DNA of 61,341 bases, the filler included, from Sphacelaria rigidula (lineage: Eukaryota): the NCBI GenBank assembly GCA_964200075.2. It is 9 parts of 9 records of this genome, joined end to end, with 100 filler letters (N's around TTAATTAATTAA, not from the genome) between each part and the next. Parts side by side here need not be neighbours in the genome. Positions count along the whole stretch, not along the records: positions 27,311 to 34,037 come from CAXNAA020018394.1; 8 more parts are not named here. The stretch is one strand, 5' to 3'. Positions 5,668-48,715 of the stretch are shown piece by piece. Under the pieces are notes generated by a model. The model was not told the origin of the DNA and ran no database searches. It saw only the letters and a program-made list of their open reading frames with translations. Position 1 is the stretch's first letter; each line of letters starts with the position of its first letter. The translations under genes and the position numbers were made by a program.

Positions 5668-6488
5668 GTGAGAACTCGAAATAGGTGTCATAGTTATATG
5701 TGCTTCGAAGTATTGTCGTTGCTGGTAACAGCAGTAATGGTGGTGGGTTAGTAGTGGCGGTATTGGTGGTGGTGGATTAGTGGTAGTAGTGGTGGTATTG
5801 GTGGTATTCGAGGTGGTAGTAGTAGCAGTAGAAATTGTGACTATCGTGGTCTTCGAGATTTGTTTTCGCTCTCAACGTTACAAGTAGTATTAAGGATTGA
5901 ATGGTTGACGATTTTCGCACATTTCATCCCTTTTCCCGGAACAATGCGCAAACGACGCGCGTGTAAAGCCGACCTGTTTCATTGGTTCTACTTTTTTTGC
6001 AGATCGCCACGTGTTTTTTTTCCCGCATGCTGTGTCCGGAATTCCGGGCTAGTTCAGTTCTTCCCATGCCATTACGTTACCCACCAGTTTGCGCACGTAG
6101 CACAGACGAGTACCGCCCACTGCAGTACTGTGCACTGCCCAAACGATCGGCCAGCACGCGGACGGTGATACATGAAAAACATGTGAGATCTATACTCCAC
6201 GTACTTGAACACGCTGCCCCTCAGCATCCTTCTGCGGTGCTCGAATCTCCACGTACTCTTCATGTGACCACGGCTGGACCCCTGGGAGGGCAGATGAAGA
6301 GCGACAATCAATCAAATAAATCAATCAAATATATCGAAATCCTCGCCCCCGATGAAACCTGGCGGAGCACAACTACGGCCTTTGATTAGCGTGCTTTCAA
6401 CCCTTCCCCTTGCGCGAGACCCTCTGTGCTCTTCACCCTGTACAAGCTCGGTTTCACTTCTCACCGCCCAGGCTCACGGCTAATCTTC

Positions 6489-6696
6489 CAAGGGCAGGTT
6501 AAGTAGACTATACTCAATTGCGAGGTATTTTTGAAAGGCGCACTTAAGGTACTCAAATTAGGGAAGAGTGTTGGGAGACGTGTACCCCAAAAATAACTGG
6601 AAAGCGGTCCCTACAACCCTATCCCCAATTTGTGTACTTCAAGTACGACTTTCAAAATACCCCTCAACTGAGTATACTCTACTCGACCTGCCCTCG
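6489..6696. mobile_element. hAT-like MITE family C with ~70-bp TIRs
   Basis: CAAGGGCAGG...CCTGCCCTCG ends; flanks TAATCTTC / CAATCTTT (degenerate 8-bp TSD); second copy 14620-14824. Confidence 0.8.
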
Positions 6697-6728: not shown

Positions 6729-6828
6729 NNNNNNNNNNNNNNNNNNNNNNNNNNNNNNNNNNNNNNNNNNNNTTAATTAATTAANNNNNNNNNNNNNNNN
6801 NNNNNNNNNNNNNNNNNNNNNNNNNNNN
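6729..6828. other. Artificial contig linker N44-TTAATTAATTAA-N44
   Basis: Identical 100-bp spacer with six-frame stop cassette. Confidence 0.99.
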
Positions 6829-12897: not shown

Positions 12898-13153
12898 GAG
12901 TCATGCCACGATAGGGGGTGGGAAGGGGTATCATGGGCCGTTTACTTCCACGAAATTCCACTTCAATCGCTGTTGAAAGCAGCCAACAGTTGTTCGAACG
13001 CACTTGCTCCCAATGAATAACGCTCATTCATACTGCCTTACACCGCTTTTACCCAAGTACAAGCGCACCGCGAGTGTTTAAGGTCGTTTGACGCATCTAT
13101 CAGCACATTTTCTCGTGGAATCGAACACCTCCCTCCCTATCATAGCATGGCTC
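12898..13153. mobile_element. Sola-like MITE family J
   Basis: GAGTCATGCCACGATAGGG...CCCTATCATAGCATGGCTC TIRs; perfect 4-bp TSD AATA. Confidence 0.8.
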
Positions 13154-13438
13154 AATAGCAACCGAGAAAAAAATACGGCTTGGGATCAGCCACGTCGGCG
13201 AAGGCGCAGGTCGTGAGGTTGATACGACTGAACACAACACGCATCTCCCCGCACGCCCGTTTCGAGCTTCGCTCTGCCTTCGCTCGCTCATTTTACACGT
13301 CGTCGCCTAGTGTGCTTGCACCTGTTCCTCCACCCTTTCCCGGTACAACTGGTGCCAGAGAGGAGTTAGACAAGAGCATGTCGGATTGCATTGGACTAGA
13401 TGTTGCTAACTGTCTTCATGTATTCCTGATTTTTTTTT

Positions 13439-14078: not shown

Positions 14079-14619
14079 GTGAGGTACAACAGTATGAGTT
14101 TTGTTCGTCCCTCCTCCTTCGACATGCCGCCTCTTGTCTCTGTTTTGTGCATTGCAGTACGTTACCGTTAGTTTTGTCATGATGCACTGTTGTTCTCACG
14201 GCCCATCGTTGTTGTCATTACCCACTGTTGTTGCCACAATCCATCGTTATTGTCATGGTCCACTGCTGTTGTCATGTAACGCCTGGTCTCTTTACTTGGA
14301 TTCGTCCTGATGAGTCCTGGTTGCTTCGTCCGACTATATGTAGATACTGTAGATACTCAGTAGAGTAGTACATGCCTACTTGTGCTTACTCACTACTGGC
14401 AACTCCTGATCGCTTTGCTGGGTTCCCGTCCGCAGGATTATTTGCAGTAGATATCACCATTCTCACTCGGTCCTGGTGTTGACATCGATATTCGGATCTT
14501 TAGAGGGACTGACAGTTCCAAGTTCTTCCTCGCGTGCGCATAACGCCTTCGAGTCCCTATCAGCGCCACAGGCACCGATTTGAGGTCTGCCAGCGCACAC
14601 TTTGCCTAGAACACCCTTT

Positions 14620-14824
14620 CAAGGGCAGGTCGAGTAGAGTATACTCAATTGCGGGGTGTTTTGGAAGACGTACTTGAGGTACTCAAATTAGGGTACAGTG
14701 TTGGGAGTCGTACACGAAAAATAACTGGAGAGCGACCCCTAAGACCCTGGCCCCAATTCGTGTACTTCAAGTACGACTTTTGGAATACCCCGCAATTGAG
14801 TATACTCAACTCGACCTGCCTTTG
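14620..14824. mobile_element. hAT-like MITE family C
   Basis: CAAGGGCAGGTCGAGTAGAGTATACTCAATTGCGGGGT TIR and its inverse; flanks CACCCTTT / GACCCTTT (7/8 TSD). Confidence 0.85.
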
Positions 14825-15139
14825 GACCCTTTACCCCCCTCGCCTGAGGGTTCTCGGTATGCCCTGGGTTGGGGTTAGGGTCAGAATGATCTCACCTTCG
14901 GGGGTGGCGGGAGTGGGAGTTGGAGCCCCTTGTTGCACCAAGAATTTGGAGTGGAAGTTGCCCCAAGGCGTTGGCATGAGCAGCAAATTTCATTCGAGTG
15001 CTCTTGGTGTCAACAGAATAGCACACGTGTTCGCACCACCCAATGACGTGTGGTGCCACATGCAAGCAGGCGCAAAAGCCGTGCGGCGCACCCGGGAACC
15101 CCCTTGTTTTCGTGCAATCAAACACCCCCCTCCCCACCT

Positions 15140-15290: not shown

Positions 15291-15328
<38 letters not shown>

Positions 15329-29025: not shown

Positions 29026-29122
<97 letters not shown>
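28997..29122. repeat. Compound microsatellite (CGT)n(TGT)n, intronic
   Basis: Direct reading. Confidence 0.95.
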
Positions 29123-29123
<1 letters not shown>

Positions 29124-32089: not shown

Positions 32090-32122
<33 letters not shown>

Positions 32123-32221
32123 GATGATGTTGTTGTTGATGTTGATGATGATGATGATGATGATTATGATGAGGGTGATGATGATGACGATGATGACGAT
32201 GATGGTGATGGTGATGGTGAA

Positions 32222-32253
<32 letters not shown>

Positions 32254-32522
32254 CGATAGTGACATCGCCCCCGCTGCTGCTGCTGCTGCTGCTGCTGTTG
32301 CCTTGGGGAGCAATGTGTGTCGGGGAGTCGCACTTCGCTATCAAAGCCATGTGCCTACATTCTTCATAAAGTCATACCATGATGATGATGATGATGATGA
32401 TGACGATAGTGACATCGCCCCCGCTGCTGCTGCTACTGCTGCTGCTGTTGCCTTGGGGAGCAATGTCTGTCGTGGGGAGTCGCACTTCGCTACCAAAGTC
32501 ATGTGCCTACATTCTTCATAAA
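32090..32522. repeat. (TTG)n/(ATG)n microsatellites plus a ~150-bp tandem duplication
   Basis: (GAT)n-GACGATAGTGACATCGCCCCC-(GCT)n-GTTGCCTTGGGGAGCAATG...CCTACATTCTTCATAAAGT occurs twice (~32222-32372 and ~32378-32524). Confidence 0.9.
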
Positions 32523-32584
32523 GTTGCACCCCTATGTCCTTAATCAAAATCATGCCCCCATCGTGACGTCACGCTAAAACACGC

Positions 32585-32750
32585 CGGACTCGCCGAACAC
32601 GTCGGGGCGCTTCGCTCTTGGTGATTGAGTACGAGACTGTTCCGACGAAAACTCATCTTGCTCCACCCTGGCTTTGTAGGAATGCAAGGCCAATGGTCTC
32701 TTAGGAATACGGCATGCAAAATCATGAGTACTCCCCCTCCCCACCCCCCT
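32585..32750 (+). mobile_element. Family A copy (intronic) ending at a C-tract
   Basis: GACTCGCCGAACAC...GGCTTTGTAGGAATGCAAGG...ATCATGAGTACTCCCCC. Confidence 0.75.
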
Positions 32751-32795
32751 GGCAAAACGCCAAAACAGAAGCCAAAAATACGCGAGCATACTCAC

Positions 32796-32950
32796 CCAGT
32801 ATTCGTCGCTTGGGTTGTCGACGGGAGTGCCCAGTATTCTGGCGTCCAGCATCTTGAAACCGCCGCCCCCGCCCTCAGTACCCAACATTAAAATGGACAC
32901 GAGGTCTACATAAGCATCCGCGGGGGTATCGAATGTCCACGTCTGGTAGT
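32796..32950 (-). CDS. Beta-helix gene exon 1 of those seen (DYQTWTFDTPADAYVDLVSILMLGTEGGGGGFKMLDARILGTPVDNPSDEYW); likely end of a galactose-binding-like/CBM domain
   Basis: CAG acceptor phase 1, TGG|GTGAGT donor phase 0, joins the next exon in frame. Confidence 0.75.
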
Positions 32951-33834
32951 CTGCCGATTGTGAATCGCTTTGGCCCTGAAACGATGACGTCGTGGTATGA
33001 GCGGGAGGGCGGAAAGGTCCCATGGATGAAGGATATGTTCGATACATACTCGAGAGTATGACAGAGTGGTATTCTGCGGAGCGGAGGTTGACATCAGAGT
33101 TGTGTGCAGCATCCTTTTTACATGTACGCCAACGAAACAAGATTATTTTGGACACGTGAAGATCTTTCCGACGCAACGTGTACCGAGGTTTTTCCAAATC
33201 GCACGCCAAGCACGCACGCATCATAGCGAACTGGACAGTTGTCTTCCGGAGAAATGCAAAAGCCGCATTCCAAGGGTGCAACAGAGAAACATGTGTGCAT
33301 AACCGGTTGAATCGAAGACATACACGACTTCCTCAGCAGCTACGGTACGGGTTTCAAGTCATAACAGGAAGCGGTGGTTCAATCGAGACGGACCTCATAT
33401 CAAAACGACTTTTCCTCACAACACATTTTCGCATCAGGATGAATATTGGTAGCCCCGTACCTTATTGAAGCAACGTGTATATAAGGAATCCGACACAAAG
33501 TTCGTGTTCACAAGGGCAGATGAAAAAGCGTACATATTTGCGGTGTCTATGAGCAGAGCTGCAATGTTTCCGTCGTATGTTTTGCTTTCCCGCTCCTGAC
33601 CCAGACCGGTATCGCGGCAAAACGTAGCCCCGTCCCCCCCACCCTCCTCTCCATTTCAGGGTTGGCGTCAGTTGGTAACAACGCGGTAGAACACATCACT
33701 CACTGCGTAAGCTAGGCAACCGGGTTATCGAACTTTGTCCCGCTTGCGTTTCTTGCGGTAACCATGCGGGTGGTGAATCTTTACCATATGGTGCAGAGTG
33801 GACACTTTCTACGATGCCCCCCCCCCCCTTTCTG

Positions 33835-33860
33835 ACTAAGGCAAGCAACAAATGAGTACG
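33835..33860 (+). mobile_element. 26-bp LINE 3' tail flanked by a duplicated C11-12-TTTCTG target
   Basis: GC12TTTCTG (33816-33834) - ACTAAGGCAAGCAACAAATGAGTAC - GC11TTTCTG (33860-33877). Confidence 0.85.
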
Positions 33861-33877
33861 CCCCCCCCCCCTTTCTG

Positions 33878-34037
33878 GTGACGCACCCATGAGGCAGTGT
33901 ATAAGCCGTGGCTGTCTCTGGAAGTGGCGATACCAGAAAATAAAGAAACTCATTGTAGACTGTCATTCAAATGCAAGATACTCGGTAGGCTTCGGACCGA
34001 ACAGTCTTAGCAGGATGCAGCTCACCCTTCATGCGAC
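33878..34037 (+). mobile_element. Family A 5' half, cut by contig end
   Basis: GTGACGCACCCATGAGGCAGTGT...GCAGCTCACCCTTCATGCGAC. Confidence 0.85.
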
Positions 34038-34137: not shown

Positions 34138-34416
34138 GAGGTTCGGGCGGAGGTCACAATGTTCTCGATGGAACATTACTCTCGTGGCTGTCGATCCCCA
34201 ATATATATTTCATGTACTCTCTATCATAGCTCAGTTGGGCAAGACATGCCAGAGGTTCCTAATCTACAAGCCCCAGGGCACCCTTGAAGATAAGATTTGC
34301 GCACACGCTGTGCAACTATCTTACAGACTTTGTTCTCATGGTACATGCAAGACCACCCATCCCCAAACCCGATATCCGGACAGCCACCAGCACAAAATCC
34401 ACACACATCATGAATC

Positions 34417-34665
34417 GAGTCATCCTACGATAGGGGGGGGGTATTTGGTTGCACGAAAAAAGAGGCTTATAAGTGTGTCAGACGACCTACCACACTCGCG
34501 GTGCGCTTGTATTTGGTTCGAAACGATGTTAATCGGCATGAATGAGCGTCACGTATCTACAACAAGCTTATCTGAGCAACCGTTGCTGCTTTTAACGACG
34601 ATTTGACCTGGAATTTCGTGCAAAAAATGGCCCAAAATACCCCCCTCCCTATCGTAGGGTGGCTC
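34417..34665. mobile_element. Sola-like MITE family J
   Basis: GAGTCATCCTACGATAGGG...CCCTATCGTAGGGTGGCTC; perfect 4-bp TSD AATC. Confidence 0.85.
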
Positions 34666-40963: not shown

Positions 40964-41335
40964 AGGGATGCGTGGTCAATGGTCAAACGACTAAGGCAAG
41001 CAACAAATGAGTACGCCCCCCCTCACCAGCCGGGGGGGGGGCGATGGTGGCGCGGCTTCGCCGCGCCACCAGATACAGGATCCTGACTGGCTTCGCCAGT
41101 ACCCAGCCCTACCGTCTCGGCTTTGTAAGGATGCGAGGTCAATGACCATATGATAATGGCATGCAAGATCATGGATACACCCCCTTCCCCTCCACCGTGA
41201 GCTCCGTCTCGAAAAGGACGCGTGGTCAGTTGTCAAATGACCGATGCAATCAATAAAGGAGTCGCCCCCCCGCGTGGTCAATGGTCAAACGACTAAGGCA
41301 AGCAACAAATGAATACGCCCCCCCCCTCCCCCGCG
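40964..41335 (+). mobile_element. Stack of four same-orientation retroelement 3' ends (LINE, family A variant, LINE, LINE), each followed by a C-run
   Basis: Tails end near 41016, 41179, 41264 and 41316. Confidence 0.85.
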
Positions 41336-43848: not shown

Positions 43849-46800
43849 TAGATGCATGGCGTAGATGCGACTCAAGATGGCTTGTGCTTGTTTCGTAGGA
43901 GTGAAGAGTTTACGGTTCAGACGCGTGATTGCTCAAAAGAGAGAAAAAAAGTTTACCGTGTCGGTCAAGAAATTCTCCACACAATATTTTCGCCATTCCA
44001 CGTCCCTGGGCTGCAATGCTGAAGAACAAAGCTAAAGGATTGATTCGTACGGTATGAATCAATCACACTGAAATCAAGTAATTCCCAGACGAATCGTTAG
44101 TTCGTCCGACCCTTGGAAGGGTTTCAAGTTTGTCGTTTGCTCTAGAGGGGGGGGGGGGGCGATAAACGGCGACGCCTTTTCATGGTGTGAGATTTTTGTC
44201 CACCAAGGGTGGAGGAGTGAGTGGGATGTTGACTGGCCGTGGTGACATTTCATGTGTATCCCCATTGAGCACTCGATACCGGATTCGGACCCTCGTTGGG
44301 AAGGAAGCGTTGTGTCGTGTGTCTGTCGTCTGGGTATATCTTTTTCGCCTGGGCACGTTTTTTTTTTGCCGCAAATATCATGCAGTGGGGCGTCCTTCAG
44401 CTATTTCGACTTTTGCTTCGCGTATCACCACGTCTTGTGAGGTGAGCCCAGATGTTGCTTGTGCGGCAGGCAGGTAGCGGCCTTGGGGAGGTGTTTTGGC
44501 CATGGGCATTGCCAGCGGAGGTTGTCGCTGTTACTGCTGTTGCTGCTGCTGTTGTCGTTGCCGCTTTTGTCAAAGTACACGGCCACACATCTTAAACAGT
44601 TAGTTTCGGAAGCCCGATCCCCCCCCCCCCTCCCTCCCCCCCCTCCCTTTTGTGCAACTCCAGCGTGAAACTTTGGTCCCAGTGTGAATGAATATCTGAC
44701 AAACTGCGAGAATTTCGGATGCCATTTTTTTAATCACACACAAGCACAACCCAAGTCGAAAATGAAAGCGATCGCCATGCTGAGGAAACAAGAAGCTGAT
44801 TGCGGAACGGTCGAGTCAGCTCTGATGAGTATTCGCGCCCATGACAGTAGTGGGACATCGTTCTACTCTCGAAAGTGGCCATTGATATTTTGCCAGGGCT
44901 GGGGCATGACTTTTACCTGCCCATCACGGCGAGAATTATATATTTTTCCGACATGAAAGTGCTGCACATGCGCAGGCAGCGTTGTGAATGATGACCTTTG
45001 TATATATATGTTGGTGAATATGTCGGGTGCAACGTGTGACGGGTTAGGAGTGGTGCCATGCATGTACCTCGCGTGTTTTAAAAGACAAAACGCTACAATC
45101 CTCTATATATGACAGAGAGAGTGAGAGGTACTTTTGTACCGTTTTCCGTGTGTTCGTTCTTTCGTGTAGTACGATAAAAACTTTCTCTTGTGTTTCTTGC
45201 TCTCCGCGCGGTTTCACCTTCATGTACTGACTGTACAGCTGGGTTTCTGCTGGAGGGGGGGGGTATTTATTTCGTGATTTTTGTCCCATATATGTGTCTG
45301 CCCCACCGTACGGATGCATTTGTTCTGTGCGTGTGTTCCGTGTGCTGGGGAGGTACACTCGACGCAAGTCTCGATCTCATGCAGGAGCAGGGGGAGCTCT
45401 TTCGGTTGTGCTGCGTATATGTTGTATGTGCGTGCCACCGTCCAGAGTGAGTCCTTGATTATCGTGGCACACGCGATGGTTTTGTGTGTGTATCTTCGCC
45501 CCCCCGTGACGTTTCAGGCTTCGTTCGCTTTATCCGTTCGCTTTATCCGTTTCATGCGTGTACTGTGATCAGGCTTTTGCTTGTACGCATTGGCTTTTGA
45601 ACTTTTTCTGGAAGCTCTAACGTTAAGCTGCTACGTACGTTGCGGAGAAAAAAAAAGAGTATAAGATTGTTTTCGGCGCTTACAGTCAGTAGAGAGGACA
45701 AGCCTTCGACGGGACATCGTATGATTCATTCTCTAGTTTAGTAGGAGAGGTTGGAGACCTCGAGTATGCGGTAAACGTTGATCGTCATTACGGGGTGGGT
45801 CCTTCACAGAGAGAGGAGCTGCTCGGCTGTAGTGTCGTGGGGCTTGACTGCGTTTAATCTCAGCCGGCGATATTGCTAAGAAAATCACGTCGTTCAGGTT
45901 AATTAATTTACCGTTTGACCTTGACTACAGATTGGCTCGTCTGACACTTTTATTCACTTTTCATGATGAAATGGTTGTTTGACAGATGATCCGCGCCGGT
46001 GGTCAACAAGAGGATTGAGAATGAGGTTCATGATGCGGATCTACGCTACAGGCTTCGCAGATTCAAAGATGAGATACATGAGGCCTTCGCGGTTCTTTTT
46101 TGCTTGTTGTTTTCACCTCGTTCAGATGGAGGGTCTCCTTAAGCTCACCACGAGGAAAGTCATCGTGTTCCGATAAAAATCACGATTCCCCTTACTGGAC
46201 TCGGTCATCCTACGATAGGGGGGGAAGGGAGATTTGAGCGATTTCTTCCACGAAATTCCACTTCAAGTTGTCGCTGAAGCGTTGGGTTCGGTCATCCGTT
46301 CGAGGATACATACGAATTACTTCATTAAACGTTTCTGAAATTTGCATAGTAGAGCGATCGGTATAGAACAAAGCTGAAGTGGACCCGTTTATGTTCGAAA
46401 TTGTTTTTTTCTCCTAGAAAACGTTTTGCGATTGGGAAAGGGTCAGTTTCATTCGAAGAAAATTCTCTCGGAGACTAGCAGTGTTTCTCAGAGCTTGCAA
46501 AAGCTGTAGTATCGTTCCAATTCCAATTGTAGAAAGTGAATTTGGTTTCTGCTGCGGGTAAAAATTCGACTAACCGGTTTTTTGCGACAGGATTTCCGCG
46601 ACTCGATTCTTGCGACATTGTTTTTGTCAGATTTTTTCACTCTAAAACCCCTATTGATTCCGTTTTGGGGGGGATAACGTTGTCAAACAGACACCAAACG
46701 CATCCTGCTCCAAGGAGCAGCTGGACACACAGCAGTTGCTGCTGCCTACCTGATATCATCCTCCAGATCGAAGTCTTGGGTGAGAACGCCCAGCGTTTGG

Positions 46801-47789: not shown

Positions 47790-48243
47790 AACTGCGATTC
47801 CGGGTGGGGGACCTGGATCTGCCAGAAAGAAGAAAGAGATATACCAGTCGTCGAAAGGAGGAGGAAGTAGATGAACAGAACTGGCCCTGTGGCAAAGGAA
47901 TGGAGAGCAGAAGTCATATAGTGGTAGGATATGAACTATACAAGGAGGAACGAGACGTGGTAGAGAGGGAAATGCAGGACGTAAAAGAAAATAGTATGAA
48001 ATCGTTTGATGCAGTAGACAGTAGGGAGAAAACGATGGCTACACCAGGAGATAGAGAGTGGCCACAGACGGCGAGACAGGACGAGGATAAGATATGCAAA
48101 AGGTCTTTGTATAATGTATGGAAGAAACGTAATGAGCGCCGAAATGTTGAAGGTGTCTCTAATAGGAGTAGAAACGGTACTCCGTCTCGAAAGGGATGCG
48201 TGGTCAATGGTCCGACGACTGAGGCAACCAACAAATGAGTACG
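47790..48243 (+). mobile_element. LINE (non-LTR retrotransposon) ORF2 C-terminus and 3' end, with degenerate CCHC zinc knuckle
   Basis: LRFRVGDLDLPERRKRY...NWPCGKGMESRSHIVVGYELYKEER...RKGCVVNGPTTEATNK*; L-R-x-x-x-G...C-x-C...E-x-x-x-H-x-x-x-x-C layout typical of post-RT LINE domains, with two Cys apparently mutated; its 3' 60 nt recur 8 times in the window. Confidence 0.8.
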
Positions 48244-48715
48244 CCCACCCCCCTCCCAATCGGCATGCATGATCATGAGTACACCCCCCTCCCAATCGGC
48301 GAAGCCTAACCGATTGCTGAGGCACAAATATTACGAAAAGTTGATAAATATGATGTGGGAAAATGCACACGAGGCAATCCCGAACAAATATTGTTTCTTT
48401 AAGCGTTTTAGGCGACGGTTCAGGGGTTCCTTGGGCGAATCAAAAACGACGTTTGATTTGGTTCAGGTTTCAGATGAACAAGCGACGTGGGCACTTTACA
48501 CGGATCGCGCCTATCTTATAGTGCAGGTAGAGGGCGCGCATGGCCGTAAAGTATACTGCTACATTCACAAGATTAATCCAGCCTTGCCCCTGAAGCATCG
48601 AACGGGTAATCGAGTTCGTCCTTCTTCATGTCGTCGAGGACCAGTATCCCCTTACCGGACTCACGTAAATACTCGACGAGGTTCTGCCCGTCGCCGCTCT
48701 ACCGGGTCAGCCTCC

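Follow-up and report, generated by a model that had tools for sequence, protein, structure and literature searches.

The C-run adjoining the copies of a LINE of Sphacelaria rigidula (family A) is a pre-existing insertion target, to which a variable number of extra C residues is joined in a subset of copies. We draw this conclusion because C-runs are enriched on the 5' side of the copies, because the enrichment is strictly strand-asymmetric and because the run is present in empty paralogous sites provided by a MITE. Moreover, target-primed reverse transcription (TPRT) is the probable route by which this RTE-X-type LINE and its partner, family B, enter oligo-C/oligo-G in a single orientation, the G strand being nicked and pairing with a C-rich RNA. 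The features of the window (the whole stretch of 61,341 nucleotides that was analysed) are given in Table 1.

Table 1. Family A, family B and MITE features of the window and their positions.
Feature	Position	Strand	Remarks
Older family B copy, 5' part	33659..33801	+	MITE end sits inside; right boundary set by eye
MITE left terminal motif, supplier of the target	33803..33816	+	One base missing; 246-bp MITE
TSD, 5' copy, C12-TTTCTG	33817..33834	+	G33834 common to TSD and element
5'-truncated family A LINE, last 27 nt	33834..33860	+	Includes ORF stop codon and 5-nt 3' UTR GTACG
TSD, 3' copy, C11-TTTCTG	33861..33877	+	C11 = 33861-33871
Family B (non-autonomous partner)	33876..34037	+	Starts close to the -300 truncation cluster; interrupted by assembly gap
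Diverged family A copy, then C36	15144..15327	+	
Family A 3' end at contig start, then C7	40964..41022	+	
Chain of three tips: B, A (62 nt), A (45 nt)	41112..41326	+	Each behind the preceding C tract
Family A copy, the longest one present	47790..48243	+	ORF C-terminus 47792-48238, then GTACG
Family B tip, 22 nt (48262-48283)	48248..48297	+	Inside C tract of a family A copy
Family A 3' end at contig start, then C10	54616..54675	+	
A copy (63 nt), C/T linker, B copy (95 nt), C tract	55812..55997	-	

As judged from its sequence, family A is an APE-type non-LTR retrotransposon (LINE) with brown-algal relatives. The element is about 5.6 kb long and consists of a 5' region of approximately 1.4-1.55 kb containing tandem repeats and a single APE-RT ORF of about 1360 aa, after the stop codon of which only a 5-nt 3' UTR, GTACG, remains; in L151, L153 and L154 the homology extends 1.35-1.55 kb 5' of the ORF, the tandem repeats included. 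Full-length copies were found in the assembly searched (G000, 244 Mb) in a decayed state, the whole ORF being covered and stops being present. The C-terminus encoded at 47790-48243 has 13 longer homologues, some of them named for Sphacelaria and Ectocarpus, and contains a decayed C-x-C..H..C knuckle. The homologues carry an N-terminal APE domain followed by a non-LTR RT (Pfam Exo_endo_phos and RVT_1 in both P0004, 1360 aa, and P0008, 1328 aa), and a profile of 15 sequences matched L1 ORF2p and L1 endonuclease structures, which bears out the first-pass annotation of the element as a LINE. The residues N173, E203, Y282, D319, N321, D386, D411 and H412 are invariant in 15 relatives, and we take them to correspond to the APE catalytic residues. 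The copies of family A share a fixed 3' end, are 5'-truncated, have variable TSDs and diverge by roughly 5-8%. The exact 19-mer of the 3' end occurred 4282 times in G000 and its reversed control not once. In this fragmented assembly of 27214 contigs, a large number of contig ends are located 50-90 nt into the element.

Scans of metagenomes and of genomes yielded one relative from each, and none was found among the viral contigs searched. The relatives in L163 and L164, two contigs of other datasets, end in GAGTACG followed by C10-C13. The frameshifted homologues P0009, P0010 and P0012 continue into proline runs, an indirect sign that in other datasets, too, the C-run comes after this 3' end. 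The database protein P0011 is a mis-joined combination of a Gypsy element (NADAR, RT and RNase H) and the C-terminal half of this LINE.

A search with the 3' 20-mer, allowing up to 3 mismatches, detected 7 family A ends in the window and 0 in 100 shuffles, and an eighth, more diverged end (41201-41264) was detected by BLAST. According to the first-pass annotation, seven of the eight ends run straight into a C-run, the eighth abuts a C/T tract and none has poly(A). We found no poly(A) at any of the eight ends in the window, C-runs at 15291, 33860, 41015, 41264, 41317 and 54665, and the C/T tract at 55934 (minus strand); however, the tract at 48243 is interrupted (CCCA-C6). The family B tip at 48262-48283 is flanked by a perfect 14-nt TSD (48248-48261 and 48284-48297), and the lengths of both copies at 55812-55997 (63-nt A and 95-nt B) fall within truncation clusters.

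The arrangement at 33803-33877 allows the target and the element to be told apart to the nucleotide. G33816 is the final base of the MITE end, and is followed by C12 at 33817-33828 and then by TTTCTG. The element is 100% identical to the family consensus over 33834-33859, and G33834 counts in both TSD and element, i.e. there is a 1-nt microhomology at the 5' junction. G33860 is the terminal base of the element itself, as 99 of 128 ends have a G after GAGTAC. The LINE tail had been described as lying between two copies of G-C11/12-TTTCTG. The duplication of the run and its TTTCT(G) extension stands, but because G33860 belongs to the element and G33816 to the MITE motif, the duplicated unit is C11/12-TTTCT(G) without the leading G. 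The family B copy at 33876-34037 appears to be an earlier insertion into the C-run later used by the family A copy at 33834-33860; L192 has the same MITE/family B arrangement with the family A copy absent. Positions 62-421 of the family B consensus align to 33659-34037. When contigs from four runs were aligned to 32530-34037, a region swamped by repeat copies, none of the pieces listed spanned the junction.

To evaluate the flanks genome-wide, we used motif-picked loci comprising 98 A and 58 B ends, with usable flanks in 80 A and 54 B copies; for the 5' side, 12 A and 12 B copies with another A or B end just upstream were set aside, leaving 68 A and 42 B solo copies. A C-run of at least 5 within 30 nt upstream was present in 43/68 A and 23/42 B copies in comparison to 116 of 3644 background windows, which for family A represents an approximately 20-fold enrichment (Fisher p 4e-44), as the first-pass reading had anticipated. 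A G-run was found on this side in only 1/68 A and 0/42 B copies, revealing strict strand asymmetry. Both proportions of C-runs lie above the share of flanks (>20% of one sequence type) by which target-specific non-LTR elements are delimited in the available text of PMC4494074. Within 30 nt 3' of family A a C-run of at least 5 occurred in 64 of the 80 usable copies, and poly(A) (A5 in the first 8 nt past the end) in 0/80 A and 0/54 B copies. Among 128 ends (the window plus L001-L100), each of the six positions after the terminal base was C in 106-117. In the motif-picked loci, C was most frequent 8-16 nt before the 5' junction. Of 127 copies, 30 were excluded owing to N or contig edges; in the remaining 97, TSDs called strictly as exact matches were identified in 28, the shuffled pairings (n = 30) giving a mean of 3.5 and a maximum of 6. 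The TSDs take in the whole run, or a portion of it, and about 4-12 downstream bases. A 5' C5 run was absent from 25/68 solo A copies and a strict TSD from 69/97 copies.

The MITE served as a multi-copy control of the target. Its terminal repeat runs on into a C-run, 33803-33828 being one such end, and 1941 exact ends consisting of the MITE motif and C4 are present in G000. The MITE copies (33803-33828, L167, L169 and others) have terminal inverted repeats with C7-C12 followed by an A-run, and their termini start with CAC and usually have GA/TC flanks. In 40 empty MITE ends the median was 8 C, and among the 20 that were not selected for C, 19 had at least 6 C; thus, empty paralogous sites carry the run. 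We also fetched 40 MITE ends with an insertion (25 A and 15 B) using a pattern with a minimum of 3 C; for 10 of the 25 A tracts this introduces a bias toward C. The run was kept on the 5' side in the 23 ends where this side was present (16/25 A and 7/15 B), one of these 5' tracts scoring 1 C owing to a double interruption. The family B 3' tracts in the MITE had a median of 5 C (at most 6 C in 9/15 vs 2/40 empty ends) and were shorter than the 5' copy in 7/7 pairs, and because of this the nick would be expected to fall inside the C-run. The family A 3' tracts had a median of 11 C, with at least 12 C in 12/25 vs 3/40 empty ends, and were interrupted in 18/25 vs 13/40 empty ends.

The assignment of the C-run to the target has to be supplemented in one respect, as several copies have more C residues on the 3' side than the target provides, or interrupted C tracts. 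In single family A cases the 3' junction has 4-11 C more than the copy's own 5' tract: L079 (3 to 11), L081 (3 to 14), L062 (3 to 7) and L206 (6 to 15). However, in paired comparisons of run lengths the 3' run was longer in 9, equal in 5 and shorter in 14 family A copies (p 0.32), and in the MITE pairs it was longer in 7, equal in 2 and shorter in 7. Since the paired lengths reveal zero net gain, the added C is an effect of a subset of copies. The longer 3' runs may reflect preferred targets or later slippage.

Another repeat with a MITE-terminus-like end, TCATCCTACGATA followed by a G-run, was observed at 34414-34643, 12925-13156 and 46204-46273 of the window and in L006, L052, L070, L093 and L114. 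It often adjoins A or B insertions. At the 5' junctions of L006 and L008 and at 60931-60937 of the window, TTAGGG-like or TTAACCC-like sequence is located beside C-runs, and may represent captured telomeric repeat or chance.

In TPRT the strand that ends in G residues at such a site, the G strand, is the primer, and priming from the G strand would follow from this geometry. In the probable sequence of events, the APE would nick the G strand within the run, and the freed GGG-3'OH would pair with a short C-rich 3' end of the RNA and prime cDNA synthesis. Slippage, or read-through from the donor copy into the C-rich TSD beside it, could supply the C-rich RNA end, and the second nick would be made a few bases past the run. 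Two C tracts would remain after each insertion as new targets, and because of this the insertions could build up chains such as those at 41112-41326 and 48243-48297. What the ORF2 protein recognises in the RNA is probably its final 65-90 nt, which lie inside the coding sequence. As far as the sequences go, either the choice of the nuclease or RNA-DNA pairing would fit as the selector of the site.

It is conceivable, although rather unlikely, that the endonuclease is fairly promiscuous or is an opener of G-rich non-B DNA, and that specificity comes from selection at priming, when pairing with the 3' end of the C-rich RNA is restricted to nicks that end in G-runs. Such a scheme would suit the copies in which very short target runs are combined with longer 3' tracts (L062, L079 and L081), the junction of L006, where the end of the run offers a matching G-CC microhomology, and the tract often being interrupted C/T rather than a pure run. 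On the other hand, the family B 3' side often has 3-6 C although the target run has 7-13, so that long runs are chosen though little pairing is needed, and in other targeted LINEs the endonuclease is the main determinant of specificity, according to the available parts of PMC4494074 and PMC3812793. That the C-run is solely an element-encoded tail and the targets are arbitrary is highly improbable: C5+ is somewhat commoner in the 3' flanks (64/80) than in the 5' flanks (43/68), and the Ectocarpus table labels RTEX-1a as '(C)n 3'' (PMC12477816, supplement, in part), but the 5'-side enrichment, the run in the empty MITE paralogues and the family B 3' tracts shorter than the target run all contradict it. 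Passive survival of short copies near C-runs, or joining of flanks at homopolymers by the assembler, deserves equally little credence, for despite the fragmented assembly with its many breaks 50-90 nt into the element and its depletion of long copies, neither would account for the strict strand asymmetry, the unique TSD tails past the run on both sides or the fact that two contigs of other datasets have the identical junction.

The 5' ends of family A are distributed unevenly. Counted from the 3' end, 45 of the 80 usable copies begin at 56-71 nt, 15 at 20-55 nt and none at 72-85 nt, and in the MITE-filled set 11/16 begin at 58-73 nt. Genome-wide, exact 19-mers numbered 4282 at -19..-1, 3823 at -60..-42 and 618 at -86..-68. 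The density of the peak at about 65 nt is nearly 7-fold that of the shorter classes. Long copies are lost at contig breaks, which raises the share of ~65-nt copies but cannot create such a peak. The last 90 nt, which lie inside the ORF, are nearly invariant in two relatives (L163 and L164): third-codon positions differ in 0/28 cases, compared with 31/130 upstream in L164 (p 0.001) and 19/130 in L163 (p 0.03). Distant homologues retain a similar C-terminal VVNG-like motif. For the isolated 68-mer a closed three-way structure was predicted, the closing pairs having p near 1.0, whereas in longer contexts a competing hairpin displaces the predicted closing helix. The folding energy of the 3' end was no better than that of shuffles (z -0.3 to -1.7), and family B has no hot spot at the homologous position (1/54 ends at 60-93 nt).

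One explanation of the cliff, which we regard as doubtful, is that not random drop-off of the RT but a defined template is responsible: the 66 nt at the 3' end of the LINE RNA would adopt a three-way fold and be either protected by ORF2p or cut by a nuclease and extended with C into a mini-template. GUGCUC would pair with GAGUAC, leaving one unpaired purine and the C residues in a manner resembling a tRNA acceptor stem. ORF2p would shield the 66 nt from 5'-to-3' decay, or a host nuclease would excise them and C would be added, and such a mini-template would explain about half of the resolved insertions as well as the C-rich primer-binding end. The data agree equally well with stalling of the RT during unwinding of the hairpin at -85 to -60 and with a template that is protected or processed. 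Three further candidates were rejected. The ~65-nt copies do not form a separate subfamily, as the -27 C/T variant was not enriched in them relative to motif-picked long copies (15/45 vs 4/19, p 0.38); compared with similarity-picked long copies the numbers were 15/46 vs 2/41. C-microhomology is not the sole cause of the cliff, since CCC lies directly upstream in 6/45 junctions only and at least 2 non-C bases are present in 31/45; the only C-rich word near the family A 3' end is at -64 to -54. No known ribozyme matched the truncation points in an Rfam search (E up to 1) of 5 loci, three with B and two full-length A, which returned only 3 weak miRNA-like matches on simple repeat. In the literature searched, with subscription journals mostly outside its range, we found neither a truncation cliff of this kind nor a near-invariant 90-nt 3' end inside an ORF.

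Family B is 561 bp long, is represented by 772 exact 20-mers in G000 and is identical to family A at 56/66 terminal 3' positions. In a tblastn search with P0004 no coding homology was detected in the family B copies of the window. Its 5' truncations cluster at 94-102 nt (9/54) and 296-305 nt (8/54). In its consensus and in L055, L074, L104 and L107, family B opens with 47 nt that repeat its own -97 motif, which is also a truncation cluster, and this suggests a boundary defined by sequence. L160 (compare 41112-41179 of the window) is an apparent A/B chimera with an A-type head and a B-type 3' end; it possibly arose by template switching inside the segment shared by A and B.

The specificity had been supposed to be undescribed, and this did not hold. 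The available part of the PMC12477816 supplement lists RTEX-1, RTEX-2, RTEX-N1 and RTEX-N2 of Ectocarpus with 'C-rich' TSDs, and its table has the entries '(C)n 3'' and '(C)n termini/TSD', with (C)n ends for the autonomous RTEX-1 and RTEX-2; the main text of the paper contains 0 occurrences of 'C-rich'. A bias of insertion to (C)n and (CA)n is also reported for Chlamys Penelope-like elements in the text available of PMC8557442. According to the same supplementary table, RTEX-1_Ec32 and RTEX-2_Ec32 resemble family A in having a single EN-RT ORF, a length of 5.5-5.9 kb, a (C)n 3' end and a C-rich TSD, and RTEX-N1_Ec32, like family B, is a partner of about 600 bp with the last 60 bp in common (83% there vs 56/66 here) and occurs in tandem. 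Thus, family A matches the Ectocarpus RTEX-1/2 group in all the features compared (ORF and size, 3' end and TSD, ~600-bp partner), which is a likeness of anatomy. The two differ in host and subfamily, the window piece being 57-59% identical to P0011 and P0008, and the RTEX-1/2 rows of the table, as available, leave the question of target vs tail unaddressed and do not mention a truncation cliff. P0011, from Ectocarpus sp. CCAP 1310/34, shares its C-terminal 20 residues with the window ORF and is 92% identical to the full-length P0008 over 475 aa. RTEX is named as a Repbase clade, with no defining features given, in the accessible part of PMC5753468.

Among other APE-type LINEs with simple-repeat targets, Waldo, Mino, Kibi and Koshi (R1 and Tx1 clades) insert into microsatellites; the targets given in the portions available of PMC3812793 and PMC4494074 are ACAY, AC, TC, TTC, TAA and TTCC/TTTC, with no case of a C/G mononucleotide run. 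The Chlamys Penelope-like elements have a GIY-YIG endonuclease and a telomerase-like RT, whereas family A combines an APE with a non-LTR RT; a Penelope-like identity was rejected, as Pfam yielded only APE and RVT_1 on P0004, without GIY-YIG. A word search of the available text of a preprint on brown-algal genomics (10.1101/2024.02.19.579948) returned nothing on a C-run LINE, and no paper devoted to a C-run-specific LINE was found in the literature search, which left subscription journals mostly outside its scope. As judged from profile matches, mammalian L1 and family A are alike in possessing an APE, an RT and a C-terminal Cys/His knuckle, the RT of L1 being only distantly related (phmmer E about 1e-20). 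L1 uses a homopolymer target strand as the primer (a T-run on poly(A)) and exhibits 5' truncation, TSDs and microhomology at the 5' junction. In contrast to L1, which relies on T/A instead of G/C, family A lacks poly(A) and has a single ORF and a 5-nt 3' UTR. Membership in the L1 clade of the poly(A) type was rejected on the grounds of the missing 3' poly(A) tail (0/80 A and 0/54 B). By analogy, family A would follow the L1 scheme with G and C replacing T and A.

The window also contains two copies (6485-6694 and 14616-14826) of a MITE-like element of about 210 bp with internal inverted symmetry, and a tandem duplication of about 146 bp as well as trinucleotide repeats (32229-32524, 29065-29123 and 32091-32262). 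The window is made up of joined contigs, and the spacers, N44-TTAATTAATTAA-N44 at 6729-6828 and in seven similar gaps, separate neighbours that are not certainly adjacent.

As the association with C-runs is already recorded in the Ectocarpus supplement, what is gained here is the mechanism and not the discovery. Family A represents a natural mirror image of L1, with a G-run primer and a C-rich RNA end, in thousands of copies and with a built-in MITE target, and with it the question of whether the endonuclease or RNA-DNA pairing chooses the site becomes testable. If the APE prefers G/C homopolymers, the known range of LINE target specificity would be widened, while the sharp 65-nt class could show how little RNA suffices for mobilisation.
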